64,000 nucleotides of DNA from Acidimicrobiia bacterium (GCA_041576165.1 JBFGLM010000009.1:1-64000); one strand, 5' to 3'; shown: positions 5,502 to 27,008, numbered from the stretch's first letter. Program-made: numbers and translations. The notes: generated from the sequence alone by a model not told the origin.

Positions 5502-6122
5502 TCAGCGGGCGCCCAACCGGCGCAGCAACTGGCGGCACGACCTGGCCGGCTCGGTGTGGTCGAAGAAGAACCCTGGCATCCCGACCGCTTCGGCGCCGTG
5601 CACGTTCACCTCCATGTCGTCGATGAACAAACACTGTGCCGGTTCAAGCCGGAGCCGCTCGGCGGCGATCCGGTACGTGTCCGGATGAGGCTTGCGGAGC
5701 CCGAGCGTCTTGACATCGATCAGCTCAGCAAAAAGGTGCCGGTAGGGCCAGGTTTCCCACCAACCGTCTCCCAGCCACGTGCTGGAATCGTTGGATAGCG
5801 TGGCATGGACGAAGACGCCCTGCAGGGTCTCAATCGTGTCCATCACCTCCGGGCGCACCTTGCCGTCCCAGTTCATGCTGGCGTGAAGGGCGATTGGGAA
5901 CCCCCGGCGGGCAGATTCTCTCTCATAGGCCGCCCAGTATTCGGACTCAGTCAGCTCACCCCTCGAGCACCTGGCGTACTCGGCATCGCCCCCACGGGCG
6001 AACGGTCCTCGCGGAAGGGTCCCTGGTGGCCATCCCTTGGCCGCTTCGATCTCGTCGAACAACTCGAATGGCGTCGCGTACACGACGCCGCCCAGGTCCC
6101 AGATCAGAGCCTCCATGTTCAC
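5502..6122 (-). CDS. HAD-IA family hydrolase, paralog of 1606..2235
   Basis: WDLGGV, TPFEL, LSND, KPHP, FIDD; last gene of the meta-cleavage operon. Confidence 0.85.
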   Translation of the reverse strand: MNMEALIWDLGGVVYATPFELFDEIEAAKGWPPGTLPRGPFARGGDAEYARCSRGELTESEYWAAYERESARRGFPIALHASMNWDGKVRPEVMDTIETLQGVFVHATLSNDSSTWLGDGWWETWPYRHLFAELIDVKTLGLRKPHPDTYRIAAERLRLEPAQCLFIDDMEVNVHGAEAVGMPGFFFDHTEPARSCRQLLRRLGAR

Positions 6123-8311: not shown

Positions 8312-8324
8312 CGCTGAAATGCCC

Positions 8325-9092: not shown

Positions 9093-9146
9093 CGGGCTGC
9101 AGCTCCCTGCCGGATCATCGGTGGACCGTAGCGAGCGCGTTCCGCC

Positions 9147-10424
9147 ATGGGGGATGCTGTTCTCACATACGGGACGGATGTGTGGAGCGAGCCGGCCGGG
9201 GCTGGGTATTCTGCGACGATCGATCCGATCCTGCGCACCCGACACCGCATCGCACGTTTGATCGTGCCGCTCTATCTGCCTTCGTTCCTGGTGGCGACGG
9301 GGACGGGGATGCTGATCCCTGTCTTGCCGCTGTACCTCCGTGACGTGGGACTCAGCTATACGCTCGTCACCACCGCGCTGGCCGCGGCCGGGTTGGGTGC
9401 TCTCATGGCCCAGCTTCCGGTTGGCGTGGCGGTCAGCAGATACGGGGTGTTGCCGGTGATGGTCGCGGCCATTGCGCTCATCGCGGTGGCGGTGGCGCTG
9501 CTGGGGGTGACCGCAGTCACCCTGGCCCTCATCGGACTGCGGGTTGTGGCAGGAATCGGGTCTACCGCGTGGCTGCTTTCTCGCCACTCGTTCATTGCGA
9601 CCGCCATCCCGGTCGCAATACGGGGACGGGTCAGCTCGGCTTTCGGGGGCGTGAGCCGGGCCGGTCTCCTCGTCGGGCCGGTTTTGGGCGGCCTGGTTGC
9701 CGCCCGATGGGGGTTTGACAACGCCTTCGTGCTCACCGGGGTTGTAACGGCGATTGGACTAGGCCCCCTGTTGTTTCGCCATCACGTGGTTGCCGCGGGC
9801 AGTCCGGTCTCGCAGGTGAAGGGCGCAGTCGGCCGCCTCATCCGCGTATACCGGAAGCCACTCGCAGCTGTGGGCGCGGTGCAGCTAGGTGTGGTCGCGA
9901 CCCGCGAGGGCCGACTGGCGGTGATTCCATTGCTGGGGGCGGCGCTGGGACTCAGCGTTGGTGAGGTTGGCGCGCTGGTGGCGGTCGGGTCCGCCAGCGA
10001 CCTGCTGCTGTTCCCGGTCGCGGGCATCCTGATGGACCGGGCGGGCCGGGTGGCTGCGCTGGTCCCCTCCCTGCTGTTGCTCGGCGCCGGTTTGTTCCTC
10101 GCTGCGGCTGCGTCGACCACGCAGGTTCTGGTGGTGGCGGCGGCGATCATAGGGGTCGGCAATGGGCTGGGAGCCGGCAGCATGCTGACAATCGGTGCCG
10201 ATCTGGCGCCGCGGGACGATCCCAGCCGCTTCCTTTCTGTCATCGGCGCGACTCGCGATGCCGGGCGCGTCGCCGGTCCACTGATCGTCGGTTGGATGGC
10301 CGACCTGGTCGGGCTGTCGGCCAGCGCGGTGGCGCTGGGAGTTGTCGCCCTGATAACCGCCGGTTTCATGGCAATCGTGGTCGGCGACACGCGGTCGGGG
10401 CTGGTCCGCTCCGGCGCCGACTGA
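9147..10424 (+). CDS. MFS transporter
   Basis: About 12 hydrophobic segments; motif-A-like MDRAGR. Confidence 0.88.
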   Translation: MGDAVLTYGTDVWSEPAGAGYSATIDPILRTRHRIARLIVPLYLPSFLVATGTGMLIPVLPLYLRDVGLSYTLVTTALAAAGLGALMAQLPVGVAVSRYGVLPVMVAAIALIAVAVALLGVTAVTLALIGLRVVAGIGSTAWLLSRHSFIATAIPVAIRGRVSSAFGGVSRAGLLVGPVLGGLVAARWGFDNAFVLTGVVTAIGLGPLLFRHHVVAAGSPVSQVKGAVGRLIRVYRKPLAAVGAVQLGVVATREGRLAVIPLLGAALGLSVGEVGALVAVGSASDLLLFPVAGILMDRAGRVAALVPSLLLLGAGLFLAAAASTTQVLVVAAAIIGVGNGLGAGSMLTIGADLAPRDDPSRFLSVIGATRDAGRVAGPLIVGWMADLVGLSASAVALGVVALITAGFMAIVVGDTRSGLVRSGAD

Positions 10425-12281
10425 TCAATCGTCTTCGGGCGGAACCGAAGCCGGGCGCCGGGGCAAACGCAAAGTGAACGAGGTCCAGCCCGGCTCAGAA
10501 CTGACGCTGAGAGAGCCGTTCATGAGCGCGGCCAGATCGCGGCTCACCGTGAGGCCCAGCCCAATCGACCCGGGCCGCCCGGAAGCAGCCGCATCCGACT
10601 CGTAGGCTTCGAAGATCCGCGTGAGCGACTCAGACTCGATGCCGGGGCCATCGTCCGTCACAACGACAGCGACATCGTTGTCATGGGCTTCGACCGAGAC
10701 TTCAATGTGGGGTCCGCCGTGCCGGTGCGCGTTGAGAATGAGGTTCCGCAGGATCTGACGGGTGCGGAGCCCATCCGCCCACGCCACACATTCGTCCACC
10801 CTGACCAGACTCGTCTTGGCTGCGGCCTCCTGCGGGAGCGCCTCTACCACTCGCTCGATCTCGCTGTTGATCTCTATTTCGGCCGGAATGACCGTGATGC
10901 CGGCGTCGATGCGGGCCGCTACCAACAAATCTTCCACGAGGTTCACGATGTCGTGGGTCTGCCCGACGATCAGATCGATGAATTCCCGGACCTCGTGCGC
11001 TTGGAACTCCTCGAGGTTGGCAGACAGTTCCGATGCCAGGCCAAACACCACGGTCATCGGGGTCCGGATCTCGTGGCTGACACTGGCGACAAACTGGTCC
11101 TTGGCGCGCACCAGGTCCTGAAGACGATCGAGGGTGCGCTTCCGCTCGAGGAATGATCCAAGCATGGCGGCGGTCGTGACCAGGGTGCTCTGCTCGGTTT
11201 CGGTCCAGTCCCACGACTCGCGCGACATAACGCCGATCACGCCCTCGAATCTCGCGTTGATCATGATCGGAACTGCCAGGATCGCTTCGGTCTCTGCGCG
11301 CACCGCGCACCGGGCCAGATCGTTCGACATGTCGAGATCCGCAGACGAAGAGAACTTGAAGATCCGACCCCTTTCCAGCGAATGCCACAACTGCGGCCAG
11401 TCCGAGCGGCCGATCGCCGTGTACCCGGTCTCGGCCGGGGCGTTCACGGTGAGGGCCATGCTCGGTACCAGCCGGAGCTGCGGCCCCTCGTGCCCGGCCA
11501 CCCTGTCGTGGAACGTGAGCCCGTGTCCGAAAGCTCCGCTGATCGCCCGCAACGCGTTCTCGAGCGCCGTGTCGTCGAACTCGGACAGCAGCACTCGTGA
11601 GCACTCCGTCAGCGCCTGTTGATGACGAAGAGTGTTGTTTCTGGACGCGAGCGCGGCCTCAGCCAGCTGCAGCGACCGGTCCCTCTCCCACGCGCCCGCG
11701 TACACGTCGGTGATCGCTTGCAGGATGAGGATTTCTGTATCCGACCACCGCCTACCTTCGGTCCGGTTGCCGAACATCACGTGGCCTGCCCACCGGCCTC
11801 CCACCAGAATCGGAAGCTCGATACCCGAGCGCAGGTGTGCGGGCGAGTCCGTGTACAGCTGCCGGTCGATCGGATCTAGATCGTCGAGGCTTTCGAAGCG
11901 GTGGAACTTGCCGCTAGACAGAATCGCCTCGGTCCCGGGCACCAAGCTCCAGTCGACCACGGGCAGGTGTTCCCGGGTCTCGCCTCCGAAGAACGGCGCG
12001 TCGGCGTCCACCCAATGCACCACGTTCGCCAGCGAGCTCCCGTGAGGTCCGTCGATGTTCTCGGTCACGGCGACCACGTCGACCTTCGCCGCCCGACCCA
12101 GGCGATAGAGCAGTGCCCGGATCTCGTCGTGTGAAGCCGATCCGACCACGGCCCGCGTCAAAGCCGCGATCGCATCAATGAGATCGTCGTTCAGCACCCC
12201 CGACTGCGACGGGGAACGCAAAGACTCTGGAGCTGGAGTCACCCATGACATATCGGCGCAAGCTCGGTGAATGTTGACCAC
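10425..12281 (-). CDS. Cytoplasmic sensor histidine kinase with two GAF-like domains
   Basis: H-box SHEIRTPM, N-box NLILNAHRH, G1 DDGPGI, G2 GLGL; no TM segment; start may be ATG 12251. Confidence 0.88.
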   Translation of the reverse strand: MVNIHRACADMSWVTPAPESLRSPSQSGVLNDDLIDAIAALTRAVVGSASHDEIRALLYRLGRAAKVDVVAVTENIDGPHGSSLANVVHWVDADAPFFGGETREHLPVVDWSLVPGTEAILSSGKFHRFESLDDLDPIDRQLYTDSPAHLRSGIELPILVGGRWAGHVMFGNRTEGRRWSDTEILILQAITDVYAGAWERDRSLQLAEAALASRNNTLRHQQALTECSRVLLSEFDDTALENALRAISGAFGHGLTFHDRVAGHEGPQLRLVPSMALTVNAPAETGYTAIGRSDWPQLWHSLERGRIFKFSSSADLDMSNDLARCAVRAETEAILAVPIMINARFEGVIGVMSRESWDWTETEQSTLVTTAAMLGSFLERKRTLDRLQDLVRAKDQFVASVSHEIRTPMTVVFGLASELSANLEEFQAHEVREFIDLIVGQTHDIVNLVEDLLVAARIDAGITVIPAEIEINSEIERVVEALPQEAAAKTSLVRVDECVAWADGLRTRQILRNLILNAHRHGGPHIEVSVEAHDNDVAVVVTDDGPGIESESLTRIFEAYESDAAASGRPGSIGLGLTVSRDLAALMNGSLSVSSEPGWTSFTLRLPRRPASVPPEDD

Positions 12282-12295
12282 TCTGAGAGCTGCGC

Positions 12296-13060
12296 TCAGC
12301 GGCTGAACCCGAGGCGGCGAGAAGCCATCGCGGCCGCCTCGACCACACCCTGGGTGATTTCCGCCATCGCCGGCTGTACGCGGGCGTCGGGCCCGGCGAC
12401 ACTCATCGCGGCTACGACCTGGCTCAGGCGATTTCGGATCGGGGCGGCCACCGACAGAACACCCTCTTCCGACTCATGCATATTGCGGGCGAAACCCTGC
12501 CGGCGCACGGTCTGCAGCTCCTTGGTCAGTCTTGTCCGGTCGGTGATGGTGTGGGGCGTCTTGGCCTCCAGTTCCCATCCGTCCAGCAGTCGCTGCAGGT
12601 CCGAATCGGGTAAGTGGGCCAGCAGTACCTTCCCCGTGCTGGTGGAGTGAGCTGCGTTCCGGCGGCCCACCTCGAGGAACAGCCGGAGCGTATTCGGCGA
12701 GTCGAGGCGCTCGACATAGACGACCTCGCGCCCGTCGAGCACCGAGACCTGAACGGTCTCCCTGGTCAGATTGCGCAGGCGCTCCATCGGCACGATCACG
12801 GCTTCGTGCAGGTCGAGGTGGCTGGCGACCGCCGAACCCAGGTCATACATAGCCAGGCCCAGCCGGTATTTGCCCGTTTCGGCATCCCGGGCGAGCAGGT
12901 GTTCCGCAGTGAGCGTTGTCACGAGTCGGTGGACGGTGGATTTGCCGAGGTTCAGGCGTCGGGCCAACTCTGAAACACCCAGTTCCCGATCCCTGGTCGA
13001 GAACTGCTTGAGCAGTCTGGCTGCGTTGGTCACGGATGACAGGGTCTGACTCTCACCCAT
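12296..13060 (-). CDS. IclR family transcriptional regulator
   Basis: Start reassigned to MGESQTL (13060); HTH GVSELARRLNLGKSTVHRL; HSTSTGKVLLA; SVAAPI. Confidence 0.92.
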   Translation of the reverse strand: MGESQTLSSVTNAARLLKQFSTRDRELGVSELARRLNLGKSTVHRLVTTLTAEHLLARDAETGKYRLGLAMYDLGSAVASHLDLHEAVIVPMERLRNLTRETVQVSVLDGREVVYVERLDSPNTLRLFLEVGRRNAAHSTSTGKVLLAHLPDSDLQRLLDGWELEAKTPHTITDRTRLTKELQTVRRQGFARNMHESEEGVLSVAAPIRNRLSQVVAAMSVAGPDARVQPAMAEITQGVVEAAAMASRRLGFSR

Positions 13061-13727
13061 CCTCGCCTCGCAGCGCCGCCAGCACCGCCCGGCGCAGGGC
13101 CTCCGGCTCGCCGCCCGCTGCGGCCACCGCCGGGCTGTCGGGTGCAATCTCTGCTGCCAGGAGCGCCTGGGCTCTCCGCAGACCCGCCCGGGCCGCCCCG
13201 GCCATTTCATCGACCAGCGCTTCACGCCCGGGCACCCGGGCCCGAATAGCGTCGAAGTCGCGTATTTCAGCCACATGGGCGTTGGCGAGACCCGTGCCTG
13301 CGTGCCCGGCATGATGCTCGCTCAGTTGAGATCCCGGTTGGACGATCAGGTGATAGAGGTGAGTGGTGATGCCCACTGCCCGCCGTACCTCTTCGCCGGC
13401 ATTGCCGGCCGCCTCGTTGATCAGGCCTAAAGGGGGCAGCACCACCGGGTCGTAGAACCGGACCGTCCAGCGCATCTGACCGATGCTGTTCTCGAGTGAC
13501 ACCTCGGGACCGACGGGTGCTGGGAGCGGATCGGTGCTGGCGATCACGTGCAGGTTTTGGACTCCGGCCGCAATGACCGTGAACGGACCGTGCAGCAGCG
13601 GCATCTGCGCTCGCCCGGCGGGTGACTGCAGATCGGCCACGGTCAGGTACGACTGATGGACGGCCCGGACGTAGGCAGCCATCGCCTGGCGCATATCCTC
13701 GGGCCGGAGCTGCGGCAGATCGGGCAT
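13053..13727 (-). CDS. Hypothetical protein, His-rich, overlapping the iclR start
   Basis: Probable leaderless start MPDLPQLRPEDM (TATGCT -10 six nt upstream); globular composition; LYHL..HHAGHAGTGLANAH. Confidence 0.7.
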   Translation of the reverse strand: MPDLPQLRPEDMRQAMAAYVRAVHQSYLTVADLQSPAGRAQMPLLHGPFTVIAAGVQNLHVIASTDPLPAPVGPEVSLENSIGQMRWTVRFYDPVVLPPLGLINEAAGNAGEEVRRAVGITTHLYHLIVQPGSQLSEHHAGHAGTGLANAHVAEIRDFDAIRARVPGREALVDEMAGAARAGLRRAQALLAAEIAPDSPAVAAAGGEPEALRRAVLAALRGEDG

Positions 13728-13803
13728 GGATCGAGCATACTGGTACGTCCCTCTATGCGGGACGGCGTCCCATGGAGGGGAACACGATGAGTAAGTTCCG
13801 CCC
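13728..13803. promoter_or_regulatory. Divergent promoter region with two tandem palindromic boxes (putative IclR operators)
   Basis: CGTCCC-N7-GGGACG (13746-13764) and CGTCCC-N7-GGAACA (13766-13784); -10 TAAGTT 13792-13797 (+) and TATGCT 13734-13739 (-), each 6 nt before an ATG. Confidence 0.6.
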
Positions 13804-14712
13804 ATGGGGATCCTGCGCCTCGGCCACGTCGACATCACCGTCCCAGATCTGGATCTCGCCTCGGCGTACTACACCGGTGTGATGGGCATGACCGAGACCG
13901 AGCGGCGCGACGACCGGCGTTTTTTCAAATGCTGGGATGAAGAAGATCATCACAGCCTTGCCGTCCGCTACGACCCGAGGGTCGGCATCGACCACTTCAC
14001 GTTCAAGGTCGAGGAAGAGGATGACCTGGCGGTGCTCGAACGGCGGGTCGAGGCATATGGATATCGGGTCGACCGGATCTCCAGAGGGGAAGAGGTCGGG
14101 CAGGGCGAGTCGATTCGGTTTGAGACGCCGTCCGGCCACACGATGGAGCTGGTCCACGATGTCCACAAGGTGGGCTCCGCTCTGCCCAAGCTCAACCCCC
14201 ACGCCGCGCCGATGGACCTGCAGGGAATCGCGCCGCCTCGGATGGACCACCTGCTGGTCAATGCCGAAGAAGTGCCCGAAGCGTCGAAGTTCTACATGGA
14301 CGTGCTCGGGTTCCGCCTGACCGAACAGCTGCTGGACGGCGACGGCCATCAGATCGGCGTCTGGCTCGAGCGCTCACACTCCCCGCATGACTTGGCGGTA
14401 GTCAGCGGTCCGAACGGCGGACTGCACCACTTCGCATTCTGGCTGGACGACTGGGATCACGTCCGGCGGGCAGCCGACATCCTCGCGTACAACGCAATTC
14501 AAATCGACGTTGGTCCGACTCGCCACGGCATCACTCGAGGGAGCACGATCTATTTCTTCGATCCCATGGGCACCAGAAACGAGGTGTTCACGGGCGGCTA
14601 CCGGCCGGATCCGGACTTCCCGACCATCACCTGGACCGAGGACAACATCGGCAAGGCGATCTTCTACTACGAAGGTGAGCTGAACGAGCGATTCATGAAG
14701 GTGCACACGTGA
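13804..14712 (+). CDS. xylE: Catechol 2,3-dioxygenase (extradiol, VOC) copy 1
   Basis: RMDHLLV, LHHFAFW, GPTRHGITRG, IYFFDP, RNEVF. Confidence 0.93.
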   Translation: MGILRLGHVDITVPDLDLASAYYTGVMGMTETERRDDRRFFKCWDEEDHHSLAVRYDPRVGIDHFTFKVEEEDDLAVLERRVEAYGYRVDRISRGEEVGQGESIRFETPSGHTMELVHDVHKVGSALPKLNPHAAPMDLQGIAPPRMDHLLVNAEEVPEASKFYMDVLGFRLTEQLLDGDGHQIGVWLERSHSPHDLAVVSGPNGGLHHFAFWLDDWDHVRRAADILAYNAIQIDVGPTRHGITRGSTIYFFDPMGTRNEVFTGGYRPDPDFPTITWTEDNIGKAIFYYEGELNERFMKVHT

Positions 14713-14728
14713 CGGGGAGGCTCCGGTA

Positions 14729-15640
14729 GTGGGCGTGCTCCGCCTGTCGCACGTCCAGATTCGGGTTCCGGATCTCGAACTGGCAACCGCCTACTACTCG
14801 GAAGTCGTCGGCCTGATCGAGACGGCCCGGGAATCCGAGCGGGTATTCCTCAAATGTTGGGACGAGCATCAGCACCACAGCACGGTCCTGCGTTACGCCC
14901 CGACGTATGGGCTCGACGTGGTCGGGTTCAAGGTTCAGGACCGCGCGGACCTCGAGGTGCTGGCCTCCCGGATCGAAGCGGCCGGTTGTGCCACCAAGCG
15001 TTTCCAGGCGGGGGAGCTGGGCCCGGGATCGGGTGAGACGCTGCGGTTCGACGCACCATCGGGTCACACGACCGAACTCGTATGGGGCATGGAGCAAGTG
15101 GGCAACCTGCTGCCGCTCACCAATCCGCCTCCGGAGCCACAGGGCCTGCGCGGAATCCATCCGCCCCGGCTCGATCACGTGTTCCTGATGTGCGAGGACG
15201 TCGACGAAATCACGGCTTTCTATCAAACCGTGCTGGATTTCCGCCTCACGGAGCAGATCCTGGCCGATGACGGACACCAGTTGGTGACTTTCCTGGAGCG
15301 AACACACACACCGCATGACGTTGCCTTCATCACCGGGCCCAACGGCGCCCTGCACCATTTCGCCTACTGGCTCGACGACTGGAACGACGTCCGCCAGGCC
15401 GCGGACATCTGCAGCTACCACGGGGTTCGGATCGACGCCGGGCCCACCCGACACGGAGCCACCCGCGGCTACGGCCTGTACTTCTTCGATCCGGCCGGCA
15501 ACCGCAACGAGGTCTACACCGGCGGCTACTGGGCCGATCCCGATCGCGACCCGGTCACATGGACCGAATCCGAAATGGGCCGGGCGGTGTTCTACTACGA
15601 GGGCGTCGTCGATCACCGGTTCTTGACGGTGCATTCATGA
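14729..15640 (+). CDS. xylE: Catechol 2,3-dioxygenase (extradiol, VOC) copy 2
   Basis: RLDHVFL, LHHFAYW, GPTRHGATRG, LYFFDP, RNEVY; GTG start after SD GGGAGG. Confidence 0.93.
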   Translation: MGVLRLSHVQIRVPDLELATAYYSEVVGLIETARESERVFLKCWDEHQHHSTVLRYAPTYGLDVVGFKVQDRADLEVLASRIEAAGCATKRFQAGELGPGSGETLRFDAPSGHTTELVWGMEQVGNLLPLTNPPPEPQGLRGIHPPRLDHVFLMCEDVDEITAFYQTVLDFRLTEQILADDGHQLVTFLERTHTPHDVAFITGPNGALHHFAYWLDDWNDVRQAADICSYHGVRIDAGPTRHGATRGYGLYFFDPAGNRNEVYTGGYWADPDRDPVTWTESEMGRAVFYYEGVVDHRFLTVHS

Positions 15641-15677
15641 GCCCTACACCGGTGCGCCGACCGGCGGAGAGCCGGGT

Positions 15678-16727
15678 ATGACCGACCGGCCGCCCCTGCC
15701 CCGGACCGAACGGGACGAGGCGCCGCTGTACCTGGCGCGATATCTGGAACGACAGGCCCGGGCCGACGACGACGATGCAAACGGCCACGATGACGGCACC
15801 CCGTTGTATCTGCGTCGCTTTCGCGAGCGCCGGGCGGCCGAGACCATCACTGATGCTTTGCCGCCGCTGTGGGAGCGCGCCGGCCGCGGTGTCCAGCAGG
15901 CCTTGAGTGAGGACAACCGCAACAAGGAGATCAGTGCTCCGCCCGACGCCCGTCCGCGAGTGGCGAACGAGGTTTACCTGGTGCGCCACGGCGAAACGCA
16001 GGGCTACTCCACAGAAGCCGGGCTGACGCCACTCGGTGCATGGCAAGCGCACACGTACGGCCACACGCTGGCCAAACGGGTGCGCTCCGGCGAGCGGATC
16101 GTGATCGCCAGCGCCCGCACCAACCGGGCCGGCCAGACCGCAGATCAGATCTTCAAGGCGCTCCAGGACGGCCTGGCGATGTTCGAAAAGGACGTCGAGG
16201 TGGACTCGCCCGAAGCGTACGACGAGTTCCGCAACTTCCAGCTGGCCACGCCGGACGGCCTACGGGATGTCACGTCAGCGTTCCGTCAGTACTACTCACT
16301 TCTGGAAGAAATCGAGCGAATTGCGCTGGGCGACCGGCCCCTGTGGTTGGTCGAGATCGATCGTTTCTGGCGCACCCAGCTGGGGGGAGGCGATCCGATC
16401 CAGCACTGGCTCACCGTGCCCATGATGCACTTTGAGCCGCCGGCGTTGTGCGTCCGGCGGTTCTGGATGGGGATCCGGCGGCTGGCCGCCGCTCACCCGG
16501 GCGCACGGATCGTCATCGCGTCTCATTCCGGCCCCATCCGAGCGTTCGCCGTGTGGGCGCTGGGGTACGACCCGGGGGAGCCGTACAACACCGAACACGT
16601 TCGGGTGAAGCTGATGGAGGGAGACGGCGCAGCGCTCGTCAGTTACCGCAACCGTGTCCAGGAAGTGAACGTCCCCGAGATTGACTCTTTGCCTACCTGG
16701 TCGTTGGAAGAATCGTGGATGCCATGA
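15678..16727 (+). CDS. Histidine phosphatase superfamily protein with N-terminal extension
   Basis: VYLVRHGET (RHG motif), RAGQTA, SHSG. Confidence 0.82.
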   Translation: MTDRPPLPRTERDEAPLYLARYLERQARADDDDANGHDDGTPLYLRRFRERRAAETITDALPPLWERAGRGVQQALSEDNRNKEISAPPDARPRVANEVYLVRHGETQGYSTEAGLTPLGAWQAHTYGHTLAKRVRSGERIVIASARTNRAGQTADQIFKALQDGLAMFEKDVEVDSPEAYDEFRNFQLATPDGLRDVTSAFRQYYSLLEEIERIALGDRPLWLVEIDRFWRTQLGGGDPIQHWLTVPMMHFEPPALCVRRFWMGIRRLAAAHPGARIVIASHSGPIRAFAVWALGYDPGEPYNTEHVRVKLMEGDGAALVSYRNRVQEVNVPEIDSLPTWSLEESWMP

Positions 16728-16859
16728 CAGCCGCACCCCGCCACAGCACGGTGTCCGGCCGCTCGCCGGGGGCGCGATGTGTGTGAGGCTTGTCCCACTC
16801 TGGGCCCGGATGAGCTCGTCCCGTGTCCGGCGTCCGCGCCCGCTCGATGGATCGCCCCG

Positions 16860-17978
16860 ATGAAATCCGAGTTCATCTTGTGGTTCGACGAATACCAGGA
16901 GTCGCACCGACCGCTCGTCGGAGGCAAGAACGCCAGCCTCGGGGAGCTGATCGGTGCCAGCCTCCCCGTGCCCCCCGGCTTTGCCATCACCACCGATGCG
17001 TACGACACCCTGCGCCGCAACGACGGCTTGGCGACCACGGTCAACGACCTGTTGGGCCGAGTCGATCACGAGGACCCGGTCGGCTTGCGAGAGATCTCTG
17101 TTGCCATCAGGTCGGCGATGGAGGCGGCGCCCATTGATCCGGCCATCACCCGCGACGTTGTCGCCGCGTATGAGCTGTTGTGTGAGCGGTGCGACACCCC
17201 AAATGTGCCGGTGGCCGTGCGATCCAGCGCCACCGCCGAGGATTTGCCGGACGCCAGCTTCGCCGGCCAGCAGGACACGTTCCTGTGGATCACCGGCGCG
17301 GATGCCGTCGCGCACTACGTCGTCCGCTGCTGGTCATCGATATTCACCGACCGGGCGATCTCATACCGCCATGGCACCGGTCACGATCATGAGCGCATTG
17401 CGATGTCGGTTGGGATCCAGAAGATGGTCCGGCCGAAAACCGCGGGTGTGGCGTTCACGCTCAACCCATCGGATGGTGATCGGTCCCAGATCGCGATTGA
17501 CGCCAGCTACGGCTTCGGGGAGGCGGTGGTGAGCGGCGAGGTGACACCCGACAATTTCCTGGTGGACAAGGTCATCATGGAGGTAGTCCGGAGAACCGTG
17601 TCGCCCAAACACATGGAGTTGGTGCTCGATCCCGGCACGAATGGCGTCGTCCGCCGCGACGTCGAGCGGCATCGGCAAACAATCGCCTGTATGACCGACG
17701 ACGAGATCAAGGCAGTGGCAGGGATGGCCAAGCGAGCAGAACAGCACTACGGCTCCCCCCAGGACGTCGAGTGGGCCATCGACGACGACCTCCCGGCCCC
17801 CAACAACGTGGTGCTGCTGCAAAGCCGCCCCGAGACGGTGTGGAGCCGCAAACCCCGCCGGTCCGTGGCGCGCCCGTCCACCGGGCTGATGGATGGCATC
17901 GTCTCGACGCTACTGTCGCCGGTTCACAGTCGGGAGAAGGCTCCCACAGTCGATGAAGAGAAATCCGCGGACAACTGA
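16860..17978 (+). CDS. PEP-synthase N-terminal ATP-grasp subunit (phenylphosphate synthase beta / CreHI-type)
   Basis: Start at MKSEF (16860); VGGKNASLGEL, VAVRSSATAEDLPDASFAGQQDT, QDVEWAID, LQSRPET; stand-alone, no TIM barrel. Confidence 0.88.
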   Translation: MKSEFILWFDEYQESHRPLVGGKNASLGELIGASLPVPPGFAITTDAYDTLRRNDGLATTVNDLLGRVDHEDPVGLREISVAIRSAMEAAPIDPAITRDVVAAYELLCERCDTPNVPVAVRSSATAEDLPDASFAGQQDTFLWITGADAVAHYVVRCWSSIFTDRAISYRHGTGHDHERIAMSVGIQKMVRPKTAGVAFTLNPSDGDRSQIAIDASYGFGEAVVSGEVTPDNFLVDKVIMEVVRRTVSPKHMELVLDPGTNGVVRRDVERHRQTIACMTDDEIKAVAGMAKRAEQHYGSPQDVEWAIDDDLPAPNNVVLLQSRPETVWSRKPRRSVARPSTGLMDGIVSTLLSPVHSREKAPTVDEEKSADN

Positions 17979-17995
17979 GCGAGAAGGAGAGTGGG

Positions 17996-19786
17996 ATGGC
18001 AGAGCGCTTCCCGAGTCCGTTTGAAGTAGATACGCCGGCCGGTGCTGAGGGATGGGAGTCCCTCTACACATACTCGCTGCCGTTCTCCCAGGACCGCCGC
18101 GACGACGAGGACGCGACATTTTGGTTCTATGACAGCGTCCACTGGCCCGATCCGCTCACGCCGTGGGACGCCACCTGGCTCGAGTACGCCCTGGCGTCGC
18201 TCAGCCAGTACAACACCCGCCACTACTTGATCCCTCCCGCCATGGGCGTCGACTACCGAGTGCTGAACGGGTATGCCTACCTGTCGCCGGTGCCCGTGCT
18301 CGACCCGGCAGAGATCGAGGCGCGGGTTCCGCAGTTCATGGAACGCGCCGGCTTCTATTTCATGAACTGGGACGATCTCTACGACAAGTGGCTGGTCAAG
18401 ATCAAGGCGCTGGTCGCCGAAGCTGAGGCGATCACGTTTGAGCCGCTGCCCGACAAAGAAGAGATGGAAGTCATAACCGAGGGCCACGGAGCGGGGTCGG
18501 GGCTGACCATCCAGGAGAGCTACCGCAACCTGCTCAATCTCGGACTGCGGTTGTGGCAGCACCACTTCGAGTTCCTCAACTTGGGATACGCCGCCTATCT
18601 CGACTTCTTCGGCTTCTGCAAGGAGGCTTTTCCCAATATCCCGGATCTGGCGATCGCGAAGATGGTCGCAGGCGTCGACGTCGATCTGTTCCGGCCCGAC
18701 GAAGAGCTGAAAACGCTCGCACGTGTGGTCGTCGAGAATGGTCTTCAGGATGCACTCAACTCCGATGATCCGATGTCCGCATTGGCCGACACGCCGTTCA
18801 TGGATCACTGGGACGCGGTGAAGGACCCGTGGTTCAACTTCTCGAACAGCACCGGCTTCTATCACCACCACAAGGTGTGGATCGAGCATCCGGAGATTCC
18901 GATCAGCTTCATCCAGAATTACGTCCAGGAACTCGAAAACGGGGTGGACATCGCTCGGCCGAGTGATGAGATCACGGCCGAGCGGGATCGAATCGTCTCT
19001 GAGTACGAGGCGCTGCTCGCCACCGACGAGGACCGGGAGGCCTTCCAAGCCAAACTGGGCCTGGCCCGGGTGGTCTTCCCTTACGTCGAGAATCACAACT
19101 TCTACGTTGAGCATTGGAGCCACTCGGTCTTCTACCGGAAGATGAAGGACTTGGGCGACGTGTTCGTAAAAGAGAGATTCATCGATGATCGCAACGATGT
19201 GTTCTACATGAAGCGGGATGAGGTCAACGAGGCGTTGTGGGACATGTACTCGGCATGGGCAGTCGGCACCCGTCCGCGGGGACCCCTCTATTGGAAGCGG
19301 GAAGTTGCGAACCGCAAGGACATACTCGAGGCGCTGCGCGGCTGGACCCCGCCGCCGGCGCTCGGAGCACCGCCGGAGGTCGTCACCGAGCCATTCACGA
19401 TCATGTTGTGGGGAATTACTTCCGACTCCATCAACATGTGGCTGGGAGCCGAATCGGTGGAAGGCGGGGATCTTCAAGGGTTCGCCGCCTCGCCCGGAAC
19501 GGCTGAGGGCGTGGCTCGCGTGATCATGGACGCCGATCAGATCGGTCAGCTGGAAGAGGGCGAGATTCTGATCGCGCCGATCACCGCTCCGAGTTGGGCA
19601 CCGGTGTTCGGCAAGATCAACGGCGCCGTGACCGACATCGGCGGGATGATGTCGCATGCTGCGATCGTTTGTCGCGAGTACGGCTTGCCGGCGGTGACCG
19701 GCACCGCTTTCGGGACCAAGAACGTCAAGACCGGCATGCGGGTGCGAGTAGACGGCAACGCCGGCACCGTGACCGTCCTCGACTAG
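17996..19786 (+). CDS. PEP-utilising phospho-His subunit (phenylphosphate synthase alpha / CreHI-type)
   Basis: C-terminal swivel domain GGMMSHAAIVCREYGLPAV; long N-terminal domain RFPSPFE..GWESLY..WFYDSVHWP. Confidence 0.85.
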   Translation: MAERFPSPFEVDTPAGAEGWESLYTYSLPFSQDRRDDEDATFWFYDSVHWPDPLTPWDATWLEYALASLSQYNTRHYLIPPAMGVDYRVLNGYAYLSPVPVLDPAEIEARVPQFMERAGFYFMNWDDLYDKWLVKIKALVAEAEAITFEPLPDKEEMEVITEGHGAGSGLTIQESYRNLLNLGLRLWQHHFEFLNLGYAAYLDFFGFCKEAFPNIPDLAIAKMVAGVDVDLFRPDEELKTLARVVVENGLQDALNSDDPMSALADTPFMDHWDAVKDPWFNFSNSTGFYHHHKVWIEHPEIPISFIQNYVQELENGVDIARPSDEITAERDRIVSEYEALLATDEDREAFQAKLGLARVVFPYVENHNFYVEHWSHSVFYRKMKDLGDVFVKERFIDDRNDVFYMKRDEVNEALWDMYSAWAVGTRPRGPLYWKREVANRKDILEALRGWTPPPALGAPPEVVTEPFTIMLWGITSDSINMWLGAESVEGGDLQGFAASPGTAEGVARVIMDADQIGQLEEGEILIAPITAPSWAPVFGKINGAVTDIGGMMSHAAIVCREYGLPAVTGTAFGTKNVKTGMRVRVDGNAGTVTVLD

Positions 19787-19791
19787 GAACG

Positions 19792-19845
19792 CGAGTCCGT
19801 TGGGTCGTGGGGTGGCGTCAGCCGCCCCGGGGGACACCGGACTCG
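19792..19845 (+). other. Intergenic stem-loop between kinase and Rieske oxygenase genes
   Basis: Outer CGAGTCCG/CGGACTCG; inner GGGGTGGC-GTCA-GCCGCCCC. Confidence 0.55.
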
Positions 19846-19860
19846 AGACTGGAGACCGAG

Positions 19861-21126
19861 ATGTTGTCCAAGGAACAGAATGAGATCCTCACCCGGGTTG
19901 GCCCGGGAACTCCGATGGGGAACCTGCTGCGCCGCTACTGGTATCCGATTGCGTTCACCAAGGACCTGGATGAATGGCCGATCAAGAAGGTGCGGCTGCT
20001 GGGGGAGGATTTTGCACTGTGGAAGACCCCGCAGGGTGGGTACGGCATCGTGCAGGAGAAATGCCCGCATCGACACGCATCTCTGGTCTACGGCGTGGTG
20101 GAAGAAGAAGGCCTGCGCTGCGGGTACCACGGATGGTGTTTCGACCTCGACGGAGCCTGCGTTGATCAGCCTGCGGAGCCGGAGAAGTCGACGTTCAAGA
20201 ACAACATCCAAGCCTTTGCGGGCCACGCTCGTGAGCTGGGCGGGATGGTGTGGGTCTATACCGGGCCCGATCCGGCACCCGAACTTCCCAGGTTCGACGT
20301 TTTCGTGGATTCCGGGTTCAAGGATGCAGGTCACTCCGTGCTGCCGTGCAACTGGTTGCAGATCATGGAGAATTCAGTCGACCCTCACCACGTCGAGTTT
20401 CTCCACGGTCGGTACTTCGAGTTCCTGGGCAGTCAGCAAGGGTTCGTTGCGCCCAAGTCATTTCAGAAGAAGCACGTGAAGGTGGGCTTCGACCCCATGG
20501 AATGGGGAATCTTGAAGCGCCGGGTTCTCGAGGGACATTCTGAGGAGGACGACGACTGGAAGATAGGCCATCCGCTCGTCTTCCCGTTCTCGATGCGAGT
20601 CGGCGGCGCCGGCATCGACCAGATGCAGATCCGGGTGCCCATTGACGACACTCATACCTGGGCGATCTTCTATTCCAACCATCACCCGGAGGGCTTGCAG
20701 TCCTATCCCGACCAGATCTACCCCGAGATCTACGAATACGAGTGGCTGGACGAGGCGGGCAACCACATCGTGGATTACATCGAAGGTCAGGACATCATGG
20801 CCTGGGTGAGCCAGGGCGACATCGCAGACCGCAGCGCCGAACACATCGGCAAGTCGGACATCGGCGTGATCATGCTGCGACGTATGTTCAAGGAGCAGCT
20901 GTCGCTGGTGGAGGAAGGCAAGGACCCGACGGTCGGATTCACTCGAGAGCCGCACGACCGGATCGAGCTGCCATGCGAGAAGGACAAGTTCGGGGCCGGT
21001 GTCGACTTCGCCCTCGCCTGGCTCGACATGGGCTCGACCCGCTACTCGCCGTCGCTCGACACTCTCCGTAAGATCCACATCGAAGCGGCTGCGGCGCGGG
21101 GCGAGGCACCCACCCAACAGCCGTGA
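19861..21126 (+). CDS. Rieske non-heme iron oxygenase alpha subunit (phthalate 4,5-dioxygenase / LigX-like)
   Basis: Start MLSKEQNEILTRVGPGTPMGNLLRRYW (19861); CPH...CGYH; ENSVDPHHVEFLH; QDIMAW. Confidence 0.92.
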   Translation: MLSKEQNEILTRVGPGTPMGNLLRRYWYPIAFTKDLDEWPIKKVRLLGEDFALWKTPQGGYGIVQEKCPHRHASLVYGVVEEEGLRCGYHGWCFDLDGACVDQPAEPEKSTFKNNIQAFAGHARELGGMVWVYTGPDPAPELPRFDVFVDSGFKDAGHSVLPCNWLQIMENSVDPHHVEFLHGRYFEFLGSQQGFVAPKSFQKKHVKVGFDPMEWGILKRRVLEGHSEEDDDWKIGHPLVFPFSMRVGGAGIDQMQIRVPIDDTHTWAIFYSNHHPEGLQSYPDQIYPEIYEYEWLDEAGNHIVDYIEGQDIMAWVSQGDIADRSAEHIGKSDIGVIMLRRMFKEQLSLVEEGKDPTVGFTREPHDRIELPCEKDKFGAGVDFALAWLDMGSTRYSPSLDTLRKIHIEAAAARGEAPTQQP

Positions 21127-21410
21127 CGTACCGCGAGGTCGACAACCATGTCGAGGTCCCCGAGCCCCAGCCGGGCAGCCGCACCGGCGGGGCCCATTGG
21201 TGGGACCCGGACCGCCTGCAACACCTACACGACCTGCCCCGATTTTGCCCCGACTGTGGGGCGGCTGTCACGGGTACCGGGGGAATCTCCATCGAATATT
21301 GGGAGTCCGACCGGCGGGTATACCACACGTGGTGCCGGGCGTGCGGTTGGACCGGCGACATCGTCCGGGTGCGGCGAATGATCGGCCACGAACCAGACGA
21401 CGACGAGTGA
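21123..21410 (+). CDS. Small Cys4 (CxxC..CxxC) protein coupled to the oxygenase
   Basis: FCPDCG..WCRACGW; GTGA overlap with the oxygenase stop. Confidence 0.72.
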   Translation: MTYREVDNHVEVPEPQPGSRTGGAHWWDPDRLQHLHDLPRFCPDCGAAVTGTGGISIEYWESDRRVYHTWCRACGWTGDIVRVRRMIGHEPDDDE

Positions 21411-21455
21411 GCCGCCGGTGTCGGAGTTGGGCCCGACGGCGGATACTGTGACGAC

Positions 21456-21902
21456 GTGACCGGGGCAGTCATCTACGAACACAGCCAACGCAGCTTCTAT
21501 TGGGTGGCGGTAGGGGCCTTCATCCTGGCCGTGGCCGGCATCCCAGTCGCATTGGGTGAGCCGATCGACGCTCTCGGGACGCTGGCACTCGTCCTGTTCA
21601 CCGCGATCATCACGCTGCTGGTCGCAGCCTTCGCCCGTCTCACAACGACCGTGACTCGTGATGAGGTCGTCGTGCGGTTCACCTGGGGCTGGCCGAGACG
21701 GGTGATCCAGCGCCACGACATACTTGCTCACCAGCCGGTCCGGAACCGGTGGATCTACGGATGGGGCGTTCGGTGGATTCCCCGCGGCATGTTGTGGAAC
21801 GTGTGGGGATTGGACGCAGTCGAGTTGATGCTGGGGAATGGGCGGCGATTCCGCATCGGCACCGACGACCCGACAGGCCTCGACGCGGCTTTGACGCTAT
21901 GA
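21456..21902 (+). CDS. Membrane protein (2 TM plus small soluble domain)
   Basis: Two hydrophobic helices; YGWGVR..IGTDDP. Confidence 0.7.
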   Translation: MTGAVIYEHSQRSFYWVAVGAFILAVAGIPVALGEPIDALGTLALVLFTAIITLLVAAFARLTTTVTRDEVVVRFTWGWPRRVIQRHDILAHQPVRNRWIYGWGVRWIPRGMLWNVWGLDAVELMLGNGRRFRIGTDDPTGLDAALTL

Positions 21903-21917
21903 ACAAGGGGCTCGGAA

Positions 21918-22295
21918 ATGGGTGAATCGTGGCACACCGCCCACCGCTGGGAACTGGAATGGCAGGACGACGTCAACATCCTGGCGCTCGGCCACGGCGT
22001 CCAGGTCAAAGTGCTGTATCAGGACCTCGAGACCGAGCACACCGATATGTTGGTGAAGTTCCCACCGGGCTATGTCGAACCCGTCCACACCCACGACGCC
22101 AGTCATTCGATCATCGTGCTGGAGGGCGTGCAGATCGCCAACGGCGAGCCGATGCGGCCCGGCGATTATGTATGGGCGTCAGGGCCCAACCCCCACGGAC
22201 CGTTCGAATATCCCGAGGGTTGCGTGGTGTTCGTGAGCTTCCGGGGTCCGTCGATCAAACACATCTATCCGGGATCACCCGCGGGCGATCCGTGA
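21918..22295 (+). CDS. Cupin domain protein
   Basis: PVHTH..VLEG..PGDY..PHGP. Confidence 0.8.
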   Translation: MGESWHTAHRWELEWQDDVNILALGHGVQVKVLYQDLETEHTDMLVKFPPGYVEPVHTHDASHSIIVLEGVQIANGEPMRPGDYVWASGPNPHGPFEYPEGCVVFVSFRGPSIKHIYPGSPAGDP

Positions 22296-22331
22296 AGCTG
22301 AACATCCGGTGATGCAGAGGTGCGGAGCGGC

Positions 22332-22727
22332 TCAGGCCGGTGGGAACTCGAATACCTGACGGGGTTCGATCTTCACGATCACTCGAGGCGAGCGGATCGG
22401 GTTCGGGTAGTCCTCGACGCCTAGGTAGCGCTGCGCCAGCTTGTCGATATGGTCCCGTGCTTCCTGGCCATGGACGGCGTCGACCATCTTTCCCCTCACC
22501 TCGACCCAGCTCCAATGGTTGTCCGGATCGACCACCGTCACAGTCACGTTGGGGTTCTCTTGGAGGTTCTTGAACTTCCGGCGCTCGATCTCGGTGTTCA
22601 CGACCAGGTGTCCATCCTCCTGATCGATCCAGACCGGTTGATTCTGGATGAGTCCGCTGGGCAGCACGGTCGCCATCATTCCGATGGTTCCGTTGTCGAT
22701 CATCTTCTCGAGCTTCTCCGGTAGCAC
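22332..22727 (-). CDS. PPOX-class putative F420-dependent oxidoreductase
   Basis: RKFKNLQENPNV, WVEVRG, HIDKLAQRYLG; SD GAGGAGG. Confidence 0.85.
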   Translation of the reverse strand: MLPEKLEKMIDNGTIGMMATVLPSGLIQNQPVWIDQEDGHLVVNTEIERRKFKNLQENPNVTVTVVDPDNHWSWVEVRGKMVDAVHGQEARDHIDKLAQRYLGVEDYPNPIRSPRVIVKIEPRQVFEFPPA

Positions 22728-22762
22728 TACGACCTCCTCGGGTTGGTTGCACGGTAGACGAT

Positions 22763-23641
22763 TCAGTCTTTATGGGAATCCCGGAGATACTGCGCGGTCA
22801 TCCCCATGTCGTCCTCGCCCATTCCGGCCGCTGACGTGGCCTCCATCACTTCCATGTTGGTGGCAGCCCCCGGCATCGGGGTTCCGGTTTCGTCCGCCAG
22901 CCCCAGGATCAACTCGAGGTCCTTGATCGCTAGGTCGACGGTGAACGTGACGGGGATCGAACCGGGCGACTCGTACACCGCACGCCGGTAGGTGAGCATG
23001 GGGGAGTTGGCGGCGCTTGCCGCGAAGGCATCGAGTGCCACCGACCGCTCGATTCCGGCGTTCTCGGCCAAAACCATGGCTTCGGATACGGCTTCGTTGA
23101 TGGCGTAGATCATCGAGTTGATGGCGAGCTTCATGGTCGCACCGGCGCCAGATCGGCCTACGTTGATCACGGGCGATCCCATAGCCGAGAGCACCGGGGT
23201 GACCCGCTCGACGGTAGCGGGATCGCCACCGGCCATGATCATCAGCTTCCTGCCGGCGGCGGCCGCGGTGCTGCCCGACACCGGTGCATCTACCAGTTGC
23301 GCGCCCCGTTCCTCGACCTGGGGCGCCAGCCGGGCGATGGTGGCCGGACCCACGGTGCTCATATCCACCGCAGCTGCATGGTCTTGCAGTCCGGCGAGTA
23401 CTCCGTCGTCACCGGCGTAAATGGCCCGGAGCGCCGTGCCATCCGCCACCATGGTGACGATCACGTCGCACGCGGCGGCTAGGTCACGGGCGCTCGGGTA
23501 GACCGTGGCTCCGTGGTCGGCAGCGAACGCCTCGGATTTCGAACTTGTGCGGTTCCAGACGCCGGTGGTGAAGCCGGCTTCGACCAGGTTGGCCGCCATC
23601 GGGGTTCCCATCCGTCCCAGGCCGATGAATCCAACGTTCAT
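22763..23641 (-). CDS. Beta-hydroxyacid dehydrogenase (3-HIBADH family)
   Basis: GFIGLGRMG, DAPVSGS, MKLAIN. Confidence 0.9.
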   Translation of the reverse strand: MNVGFIGLGRMGTPMAANLVEAGFTTGVWNRTSSKSEAFAADHGATVYPSARDLAAACDVIVTMVADGTALRAIYAGDDGVLAGLQDHAAAVDMSTVGPATIARLAPQVEERGAQLVDAPVSGSTAAAAGRKLMIMAGGDPATVERVTPVLSAMGSPVINVGRSGAGATMKLAINSMIYAINEAVSEAMVLAENAGIERSVALDAFAASAANSPMLTYRRAVYESPGSIPVTFTVDLAIKDLELILGLADETGTPMPGAATNMEVMEATSAAGMGEDDMGMTAQYLRDSHKD

Positions 23642-23649
23642 GCTGCTCC

Positions 23650-25989: not shown

Positions 25990-26005
25990 TCAGCGCTCCT
26001 GGCGG

Positions 26006-26905: not shown

Positions 26906-26919
26906 GCCGCCTCCCGCTC

Positions 26920-26940
26920 GATCGTGCAGAATATACGACC
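26920..26940 (-). promoter_or_regulatory. Operator-like 21-mer, copy 1 (GGTCGTATATTCTGCACGATC)
   Basis: 18/21 identical to 30276..30296; ends 14 nt upstream of the start codon. Confidence 0.65.
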
Positions 26941-27008
26941 GCACCGGAGCACGGTGTGGGAAGAGCGAATCGCCGGTGAAACCGGCGAAAAATGATGGAG
27001 GCGTGTCA

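Follow-up and report, generated by a model that had tools for sequence, protein, structure and literature searches.

What would a bacterium do with a gene cluster that sets a split kinase pair, resembling those that phosphorylate phenols, beside a Rieske oxygenase and two catechol 2,3-dioxygenases (C23O)? The question is raised by positions 13804-21410 of a 64-kb stretch of DNA from an Acidimicrobiia bacterium (GCA_041576165.1 JBFGLM010000009.1:1-64000), which we call the window. Textbook aerobic phenol degradation relies on flavin or diiron hydroxylases, and phenol phosphorylation was long viewed as anaerobic, with two aerobic side-chain routes (Cre and Hpe/Acv) added lately. An earlier note on this DNA had proposed an undescribed aerobic pathway in which a phenol is trapped as its aryl phosphate, attacked by the Rieske enzyme and turned into a catechol for meta cleavage. 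To the reach of sequence analysis we find this interpretation partly supported: we put at roughly 45% the probability that the cluster encodes an aerobic route for small phenols that would phosphorylate, oxygenate, dephosphorylate and cleave, with hydroxylation ortho to the phosphate and hydrolysis afterwards. The substrates would most likely be phenol or cresols.

A conserved seven-gene module

The window has a GC content of ~65% and is part of contig 9 of a 5.1-Mb, 161-contig genome (completeness 96.5%, contamination 7.5%), the nearest relatives of which are Acidimicrobiia metagenome-assembled genomes. Every gene of the co-oriented run described by the earlier note was found. The seven genes are tightly packed on the + strand, with spacers of 16-132 nt or overlaps:

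13804..14712, +, catechol 2,3-dioxygenase 1 (C23O_1), 302 aa, TIGR03211
14729..15640, +, catechol 2,3-dioxygenase 2 (C23O_2), tandem paralogue, 303 aa, TIGR03211
15678..16727, +, divergent histidine phosphatase, 349 aa, PF00300
16860..17978, +, predicted aryl-kinase small subunit, ATP-grasp (PpsB/CreI/HpeI-like), PF01326; longest open reading frame (ORF) from 16779
17996..19786, +, predicted aryl-kinase large subunit (PpsA/CreH/HpeH-like), 596 aa, substrate-binding part plus phospho-His swivel domain PF00391
19861..21126, +, alpha-only Rieske non-haem iron oxygenase of the phthalate family, 421 aa, PF00355, LigXa_C and VanA_C
21123..21410, +, Cys4 zinc-ribbon-like mini-protein, 95 aa, with CPDC and CRAC

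Among ~64 ORFs of the 64-kb window a Pfam scan found, in line with the earlier note, neither a P450 nor a phenol hydroxylase, a short-chain dehydrogenase/reductase (SDR), a UbiD-type carboxylase or a biotin carboxylase. Nor did it reveal a CreJ-type P450 with its ferredoxin/reductase, the CreG/CreC dehydrogenases, an HD-domain CreD, a UbiD-type phenylphosphate carboxylase or PpsC.

To follow the cluster beyond this genome, we scanned the Rieske protein against one genome per species, which gave 588 tblastn-confirmed relatives, and kept the best 80 loci (63-83% identity). The window proteins were placed on these 80 loci by tblastn, and the denominators given here count only those loci whose flanking DNA reaches far enough. 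The kinase large subunit is encoded directly upstream of the Rieske gene in 66/69 testable loci and the small subunit is found in 63/66; the histidine phosphatase is present in 61/62, C23O_2 in 56/57 and C23O_1 in 57/57, and a Cys4 gene follows the Rieske gene in 70/74. The three misses of the large subunit are an insertion that shifts the genes beyond the distance limit (L063), a kinase of another lineage (L029) and a locus with no kinase (L087). Less constant are the neighbours of the run: of the 80 loci, 50 have a conserved unknown ORF, 49 a haloacid dehalogenase-like (HAD) phosphatase and 14 a Rieske ferredoxin.

The linkage of kinase, Rieske gene, phosphatase and two C23O genes that the earlier note wished to see elsewhere thus recurs in dozens of loci, and this recurrence rules out chance co-location. 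We conclude that the cluster is a real and widely kept actinobacterial gene module, for which both gene content and conserved linkage are direct observations. Cultured carriers include Nocardioides litoris, N. zhouii, N. baculatus, N. allogilvus, Nostocoides sp. Soil756, a Micromonospora, Longivirga aurantiaca and Blastococcus jejuensis, and the record labels of carriers include freshwater Nanopelagicales, sponge-associated Acidimicrobiia and soil Nocardioides. The 588 Rieske relatives imply a spread over hundreds of genomes. In a second sample, 400 other Actinomycetota genomes evenly drawn, a Rieske match at E<=1e-100 was seen in 16/400; 11 of these fall among 21 genomes of one family, and one of the 16 (G283) holds merely a 52% paralogue.

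The kinase pair, its exchange and its loss

The kinase is split over two polypeptides, as in the known phenol dikinases, which pair an ATP-grasp protein of about 40 kDa with one of about 65-70 kDa that has the phospho-His swivel domain at its end, and which turn ATP, phenol and water into aryl phosphate, AMP and Pi. PF01326 (E 9.5e-110, residues 45-362 of the 399-aa ORF) is the sole Pfam domain of the small subunit, a protein of 372-399 aa, and PF00391 lies at 519-590 of the 596-aa large subunit. The large subunit scores 801 bits with NF006150 (cut-off 650) and carries the motif MMSHAAIVCRE from residue 551, where Ser-His (553-554) places a serine before the swivel-domain histidine. This is the arrangement of CreH and PpsA; HpeH has a cysteine in this place, according to the accessible part of PMC12167813.

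Since pairs of this kind resemble phosphoenolpyruvate (PEP) synthases, we asked how far the likeness goes. The PEP synthase equivalog models gave the pair 94-368 bits against cut-offs of 598-740, and the PEP/pyruvate-binding TIM-barrel of true PEP synthase/PPDK was not detected by Pfam in either subunit. PEP synthases and RPH align to the large subunit only at 479-596, or about 300-596, with 23-30% identity, and the match to solved PEP synthases is, outside the ATP-grasp subunit, confined to residues 479-596. With scores far under the cut-offs and partial matches only, a true PEP synthase was rejected.

A protein search with the large subunit returned close orthologues only, named 'PEP-utilizing enzyme' or 'pyruvate, water dikinase'. 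Reference kinases were taken from a plasmid collection, with roles defined by the neighbouring genes. Closest were the large subunits of two Rhodococcus Cre-type clusters (51.7% and 50.8% identical over the full length; Rhodococcus oxybenzonivorans pRB98 and a Rhodococcus ruber plasmid), whose neighbours encode a P450, an SDR, a ferredoxin, a reductase, an HD hydrolase and an aldehyde dehydrogenase. They are followed by Azoarcus KH32C (pAZKH), where ppsABC stands beside ppcBDAG (47.3%), by a Thermomicrobium pair with molybdenum hydroxylase neighbours (45.4%), by a Rhizobium Hpe/Acv-type pair next to a biotin carboxylase, an HAD phosphatase and a CoA ligase (43.2%), by haloarchaeal pairs (40-43%) and by a Bacillus pair linked to a nonribosomal peptide synthetase (22%). 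The likeness to Cre-, Pps- and Hpe-type large subunits amounts to 40-52% over 99-100% of the length.

In a tree of 34 rows (the window, 25 other Rieske-linked copies hand-picked to cover the range, and 8 references; IQ-TREE, LG+G4) that was rooted, by arbitrary choice, on the haloarchaeal pair, the main Rieske-linked clade of 24 rows and the Cre-type pair came out as sister groups (support 97/97). This clade returned, with support 96, in a quick tree for which the Bacillus homologue served as root. As the earlier note had anticipated, the pair groups with context-defined Cre-/Pps-type aryl kinases and not with PEP synthases. On the strength of the trees and of the full-length identity to Cre/Pps-type large subunits, we assign the pair to the aryl dikinases, the 4-cresol kinase being the closest characterised type. 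The anaerobic phenol pathway (PpsABC plus phenylphosphate carboxylase, as in Azoarcus KH32C) shares with the window this kinase family and a likely phenolic type of substrate. It differs in having PpsC (CBS) and UbiD/UbiX, in its A-B gene order, which is B-A in the window, and in the oxygen-dependent context of the latter.

One locus carries a different kinase in the same place. In L029 the phosphatase and Rieske genes (Rieske protein 82% identical to that of the window) flank a kinase whose large subunit is 51% identical, whose gene order is A-B and whose small subunit is spread over three frames, probably as a result of assembly errors. A kinase of the L029 type also follows a Cys4 gene at the start of one contig of genome G008, and a Rieske gene ends another contig, so that linkage is likely there too. 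The L029 and G008 kinases group together with support 100/100, on the side of the tree that holds Hpe and Thermomicrobium, and all Rieske-linked kinases fell into one group in 0/200 bootstrap trees. In the Rieske tree, L029 stands among the nearest relatives of the window. Judged by these trees, the kinase of L029 was swapped in place, which argues that some aryl kinase is what the module needs.

The locus without a kinase, L087, belongs to a genome with only 30-36% identical relatives of the large subunit. It is nested in a derived Rieske clade whose other members carry the kinase, and because of this position its state is best read as a kinase loss. The same locus (L087:6994-15248) also lacks the Cys4 gene and has a Sulfotransfer_1 protein at 13959-15248; that sulfation replaces phosphorylation there is pure speculation.

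Some further kinase loci deserve mention. Three Acidimicrobiia loci (L022, L025, L026) have a second ATP-grasp subunit (~40% identical) beside an HAD gene, ~4-6 kb downstream of the Rieske gene, which may be a second aryl-kinase system near the cluster. On the Thermomicrobium roseum megaplasmid (L090:8986-17462) the kinase pair lies beside three subunits of a xanthine-dehydrogenase-family molybdenum hydroxylase, an arrangement that recalls the kinase-dependent 3-hydroxypyridine hydroxylation of Ensifer adhaerens HP1, as described in the accessible part of bioRxiv 10.1101/2020.01.08.898148. Finally, plasmids of the haloarchaea Natribaculum luteum (L092:4033-11976) and Haladaptatus salinisoli (L095:2413-11945) place a split aryl-kinase pair beside a Rieske alpha+beta oxygenase, with an aldehyde dehydrogenase, a metallophosphoesterase, a NUDIX hydrolase and IclR as further neighbours and a Zn alcohol dehydrogenase in L095. 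These archaeal loci have the look of a side-chain route of the Cre type that employs a Rieske enzyme where Cre has its P450.

The oxygenase, the phosphatases and the proposed route

In the route that we favour, the split dikinase (16860-19786) would use ATP to turn a phenol into its aryl phosphate, and the alpha-only Rieske oxygenase (19861-21126) would then put oxygen next to the phosphorylated oxygen, its electrons being supplied by a phthalate-dioxygenase-reductase-like reductase or by a Rieske ferredoxin. Catechol would be freed by the dedicated histidine phosphatase, for which an HAD phosphatase is the second candidate, and the two catechol 2,3-dioxygenases would open the catechol ring for the meta pathway. 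We infer from the genes the substrate, the role of the aryl phosphate as substrate of the oxygenase, the site of attack and the division of labour between the phosphatases. Candidates for the accessory parts lie upstream on the - strand:

5502..6122, -, HAD-family phosphatase, candidate second phosphatase of the module, PF00702
6119..6511, -, Rieske-type ferredoxin, candidate electron carrier for the oxygenase, PF00355
6753-7538, 7535-8311 and 8325-9092, -, three paralogues of the 2-oxopent-4-enoate hydratase / 4-oxalocrotonate decarboxylase family, TIGR03218 and TIGR03220

The Rieske oxygenase is intact, as had been stated, with both metal motifs present (CPHR/CGYHG and DPHHVEFLH); its gene start was corrected to the true ATG at 19861, and residue numbers here follow the 422-aa translation from 19858. 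Over 79 sequences C69, H71, C88, D175, H178, H183 and D334 are invariant and H91 is near-invariant, D334 being the presumed carboxylate iron ligand by analogy with Asp343 of phthalate dioxygenase (PDO). Catalytic motifs and the family placement of every enzyme in the run are direct observations. No NTF2-like gene for a beta subunit is adjacent to the Rieske gene. The AlphaFold2 (AF2) model, built from 79 sequences, reached a pLDDT of 95.3, and the best solved relatives are the alpha3-alpha3 phthalate/isophthalate dioxygenases of Comamonas testosteroni KF1 (7fjl/7v25, 9ina; sequence E 1.5e-48, Foldseek E ~3e-30, TM 0.67-0.69, ~26-29% identity over the fold alignment). SxtT/GxtA, carbazole dioxygenase, dicamba demethylase and NdmA come next.

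With the KF1 enzymes the window oxygenase shares the alpha-only fold, the metal motifs and the bridging Asp, and a reductase of their FNR-plus-plant-ferredoxin type is present in the Nocardioides cluster; unlike them it has no equivalents of Arg207/Arg244 and no dihydrodiol dehydrogenase, and it is coupled to the Cys4 mini-protein. Arg207 and Arg244 hold the substrate carboxylates in phthalate dioxygenase (accessible part of PMC8649396). As both of these arginines are not kept, phthalate dioxygenase proper was rejected. The family comprises 915 representatives at E<=1e-30, within which the orthologues stand well apart: no full-length relative beyond their group exceeds 52% identity, and H206, H238, H275, Q255, K377 and R395, among others, are invariant in 29 orthologues but seldom seen in 50 further members of the family. 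Across the related loci the cluster has no conserved dihydrodiol dehydrogenase. An aryl phosphate as substrate would fit both this absence and the anionic aromatics of the oxygenase family.

The start of the Cys4 gene overlaps the Rieske stop codon by 4 nt. In 35 orthologues of the mini-protein (CPDC at 42-45, CRAC at 71-74) C42, C45, C71, C74, W60, W76, H34, E58 and R65 are invariant; no family matched over threshold, and Pfam searched to E 10 yielded sub-threshold zinc-ribbon matches only. Prediction of a complex with the Rieske protein scored 0.01 against a mark of 0.32, in a run without controls. One Rieske clade (L079, L081, L105, L087, L078; support 100) has lost the Cys4 gene and has kept the kinase except in L087, the upstream DNA of L078 being too short. 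The mini-protein is accordingly not indispensable.

For electron supply, the window ferredoxin matches NCBIfam ferredoxin-subunit models under their cut-offs, and its homologue stands beside iclR in 14 related loci. In Nocardioides litoris the Rieske and Cys4 genes are followed by an HAD phosphatase, a reductase that combines NAD-binding and plant-type ferredoxin domains, hydratase(s), an aldehyde dehydrogenase and an alpha/beta hydrolase, which by their families would amount to the electron supply and the remainder of the catechol meta pathway.

The histidine phosphatase (PF00300, E 3.7e-14) carries RHGETQG at 103-109 and SHSGPIR at 282-288; R103, H104 and R150 are invariant in 35 orthologues and H283 nearly so, which agrees with branch 1 of the histidine phosphatase superfamily, where the His of RHG is the nucleophile. 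It has a disordered N-terminal part with conserved P-x-YL / PLYLR motifs and a long, highly conserved insertion. A sequence search found no solved relative, and with the AF2 model (pLDDT 76) Foldseek matched the generic His-phosphatase family only (probability 1.0, 12-18% identity). Homologues at E<=1e-30 occur in 16/400 Actinomycetota of the second sample: 15 are among the Rieske holders, and in the 16th (G111) the Rieske gene is truncated where its contig stops. None was seen in genomes of the 400 without a Rieske gene. Within this sample, the subfamily occurs only with the Rieske oxygenase. Moreover, the phosphatase is retained where the kinase lineage was swapped (L029) or lost (L087). The HAD phosphatase homologue of 49 related loci mostly lies directly after the Cys4 gene. 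In the Hpe pathway the HAD phosphatase HpeD strips the phosphate only after the modifying step, according to the accessible part of PMC9618137.

The earlier note had left open whether the phosphate is eliminated or removed, a wording that covers both. Because the histidine phosphatase is co-inherited with the Rieske gene and an HAD phosphatase is frequent, enzymatic dephosphorylation after oxygenation is favoured and spontaneous elimination is disfavoured. Spontaneous loss of phosphate would need neither phosphatase, and for this reason we rank ortho oxygenation with subsequent hydrolysis over dioxygenation with elimination. In the latter scheme, the ipso/ortho chemistry to which the earlier note leaned, the Rieske enzyme would be an 'aryl phosphate 1,2-dioxygenase, dephosphorylating': it would dioxygenate the phosphate-bearing carbon and its neighbour, the phosphate would leave spontaneously to give catechol directly, and the phosphatases would rescue dead-end aryl phosphates. 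The phthalate family does include enzymes whose attack falls on heteroatom-bearing carbons and which expel the substituent (carbazole 1,9a-dioxygenase, phenoxybenzoate dioxygenase, 4-sulfobenzoate dioxygenase); carbazole 1,9a-dioxygenase is among the fold matches, and the lack of a conserved dihydrodiol dehydrogenase is also in keeping with elimination. However, the Rieske-restricted phosphatase (61/62 loci) and the frequent HAD phosphatase would be superfluous, and known aerobic kinase routes use an enzyme to strip the phosphate after modification (Hpe, accessible part of PMC9618137; an HD-domain gene in Cre-type clusters). We therefore consider elimination unlikely, though it is the alternative that fares best.

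The other alternatives concern the substrate. Guaiacol (2-methoxyphenol) could be phosphorylated and then O-demethylated by the Rieske enzyme, the phosphatase freeing catechol. LigXa_C and VanA_C, models of Rieske O-demethylases, match the C-terminal domain, dicamba O-demethylase is among the solved relatives, and AcvAB is reported to be active on guaiacol (accessible part of PMC12624787). But no formaldehyde-handling gene is conserved in the cluster, ring dioxygenases are the closest solved relatives and the kinase is nearest to the Cre type, which acts on 4-cresol, so that guaiacol appears improbable.

The ring-cleavage genes bear on the two alternatives left. Both dioxygenases exceed the TIGR03211 cut-off of 320.2 bits (C23O_1 381.4, C23O_2 366.9). 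They are 56% identical to each other and have the two-domain type I extradiol fold (PF00903 twice plus PF22247), with 3hpv, 1mpy and 5znh as best solved relatives (E about 1e-80). Their metal ligands are presumably the H/H/E of the MDHL, LHHFA and RNEV motifs. The paralogues at 6753-9092 have TIGR03218/TIGR03220 as best models, all under the cut-offs, and their homologues flank the cluster in most related loci.

The Cre pathway for 4-cresol in Corynebacterium glutamicum consists of the CreHI kinase, the P450 system CreJEF, CreG, CreC and CreD. It resembles the window cluster in being aerobic, in its split aryl dikinase (the nearest one, 51-52%), its IclR regulator and a dedicated phosphatase after the oxygenase step. 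By analogy, the Rieske enzyme could take the place of CreJ and oxidise the aryl phosphate at an alkyl side chain; a later or unrelated catechol would then be what the dioxygenases act on. The sister position of the Cre-type kinases agrees with this, as do the haloarchaeal plasmids, on which a Rieske alpha/beta oxygenase, a phosphoesterase and dehydrogenases for alcohols and aldehydes accompany such a kinase. Yet the window has a Rieske enzyme and not a P450, no side-chain alcohol/aldehyde dehydrogenase, and phosphatases of the histidine-phosphatase (plus HAD) families instead of the HD family. No alcohol dehydrogenase is conserved in the related loci, and the only aldehyde dehydrogenase seen sits among the Nocardioides meta-pathway genes. 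Furthermore, the two C23O genes head the operon in testable loci (57/57, 56/57), pointing to meta cleavage of catechol, whereas the Cre product, 4-hydroxybenzoate, needs a protocatechuate pathway that is not in the cluster. We regard side-chain oxidation as quite improbable. Least probable is a kinase substrate of another class, a 3-hydroxypyridine-like N-heterocycle or an aniline converted to its phosphoamidate, followed by Rieske hydroxylation: Ensifer adhaerens HP1 cannot convert 3-hydroxypyridine without a homologous pair (accessible part of bioRxiv 10.1101/2020.01.08.898148) and a phenylphosphoamidate route is reported for aniline (accessible part of PMC7500099), but both dioxygenases exceed the TIGR03211 cut-off, relatives hold a standard catechol meta pathway, and no maleamate-pathway or deaminase genes are conserved in related loci.

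Several points weigh against the ortho-hydroxylation route itself. Its cost would exceed that of a flavin or diiron phenol hydroxylase by two ATP equivalents, and the requirement for two phosphatases lacks an explanation. In L087 the phosphatase and Rieske genes are adjacent and overlapping, with no kinase. The positions of the PDO arginines Arg207/Arg244 are A198/I236 here (a hand mapping of the HMMER alignment, with moderate alignment confidence), and the anion site is not readable from the sequence. In the host genome (96.5% complete) DmpG aldolase and 2-hydroxymuconic semialdehyde dehydrogenase stay under the NCBIfam cut-offs, and the nearest relative of the Nocardioides reductase is 34% identical and lies on another contig.

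Among known systems, Hpe/Acv (acetovanillone, 4-hydroxyacetophenone) also has a split dikinase and keeps the phosphate through the modification until the HAD phosphatase HpeD removes it, according to the accessible parts of PMC9618137 and PMC12167813; the second kinase lineage of L029 and G008 falls on its side of the tree. The window differs from Hpe/Acv in lacking a biotin carboxylase, a CoA ligase and a thiolase-like hydrolase; the carboxylase is replaced by an oxygenase, and the Rhizobium kinase is only 43% identical. Most likely, the cluster extends the phosphorylate-oxidise-dephosphorylate logic known from Cre and Hpe. The parallel with aniline dioxygenase drawn before is an analogy only. 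Consistent with the earlier note, a full-text literature search, with most subscription journals outside its scope, found no published route combining kinase, Rieske and extradiol enzymes. The phenol-kinase systems in the literature searched were Cre (by citation), Pps, Hpe/Acv, MarK and the 3-hydroxypyridine case, and a report on a Rieske system acting on 2,4-xylenol (PMC13599478) mentions neither kinase nor phosphate.

If the proposed route is correct, the phosphorylation logic would reach even the hydroxylation of the ring, an aryl phosphate being the substrate of a Rieske enzyme. The fullest form of this idea is rather doubtful: the enzyme would be the first 'aryl phosphate dioxygenase', the phosphate ester would serve as an anionic handle that is expelled or hydroxylated ortho to, phosphorylation would become a general phenol trap, and the phosphatase and Cys4 protein would be new dedicated accessories. 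On this doubtful reading, oligotrophic aquatic and soil Actinomycetota could trap and oxidise membrane-permeant phenols with high affinity at the expense of ATP and would need no classical phenol hydroxylase for it. Should the route itself be confirmed, the annotation 'PEP-utilizing enzyme / pyruvate, water dikinase' on thousands of proteins would need revision, and the module would offer a new marker of phenol turnover for metagenome surveys and a new class of oxygenase substrate for biocatalysis.

The divergent promoter and the flanking genes

On its upstream side the run faces minus-strand genes across a short intergenic region:

12296..13060, -, IclR-family regulator, PF09339 and PF01614, in the same place in most related loci
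13053..13727, -, conserved unknown ORF, 224 aa from M38, found by tblastn in 50/80 loci
13748..13782, strand not assigned, two TyCC-N7-GGrA palindromes, likely IclR operator, in the 76-nt divergent promoter

The earlier note had described the run as divergent from iclR. The + strand run does face the minus-strand iclR, but its immediate divergent neighbour is the unknown ORF, the stop of which overlaps the iclR start by 8 nt. This ORF carries an invariant His-rich motif, YHL..PG..L..HHA.HAG..LA..H....RD; it had no match in Pfam or NCBIfam, and the ESM Atlas held no usable match for either the window or the N. litoris copy.

The TyCC-N7-GGrA motif occurs <=250 nt upstream of C23O_1 in 43/57 related loci, compared with 17/1099 control windows. 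The palindromes are therefore probably the IclR operator, and in the proposed route the IclR regulator would govern the divergent promoter. Imperfect, weaker matches to the motif, which chance may explain, cover two start codons, at 13796 and at 9140. A promoter/terminator scan of 13000-22800 gave sites not above those in shuffled sequence.

Two genes between the meta-pathway genes and iclR, an MFS transporter (9147-10424, +) and a GAF-GAF histidine kinase without an adjoining response regulator (10425-12281, -), have counterparts in 0/80 related loci. Downstream of the cluster, at 22332-27022, the - strand encodes two HIBADH-like dehydrogenases, a PPOX-class protein of the F420-dependent type and the large subunit of a molybdoenzyme of the CO-dehydrogenase/xanthine-dehydrogenase family, which stands alone, neither a small nor a medium subunit being encoded next to it.

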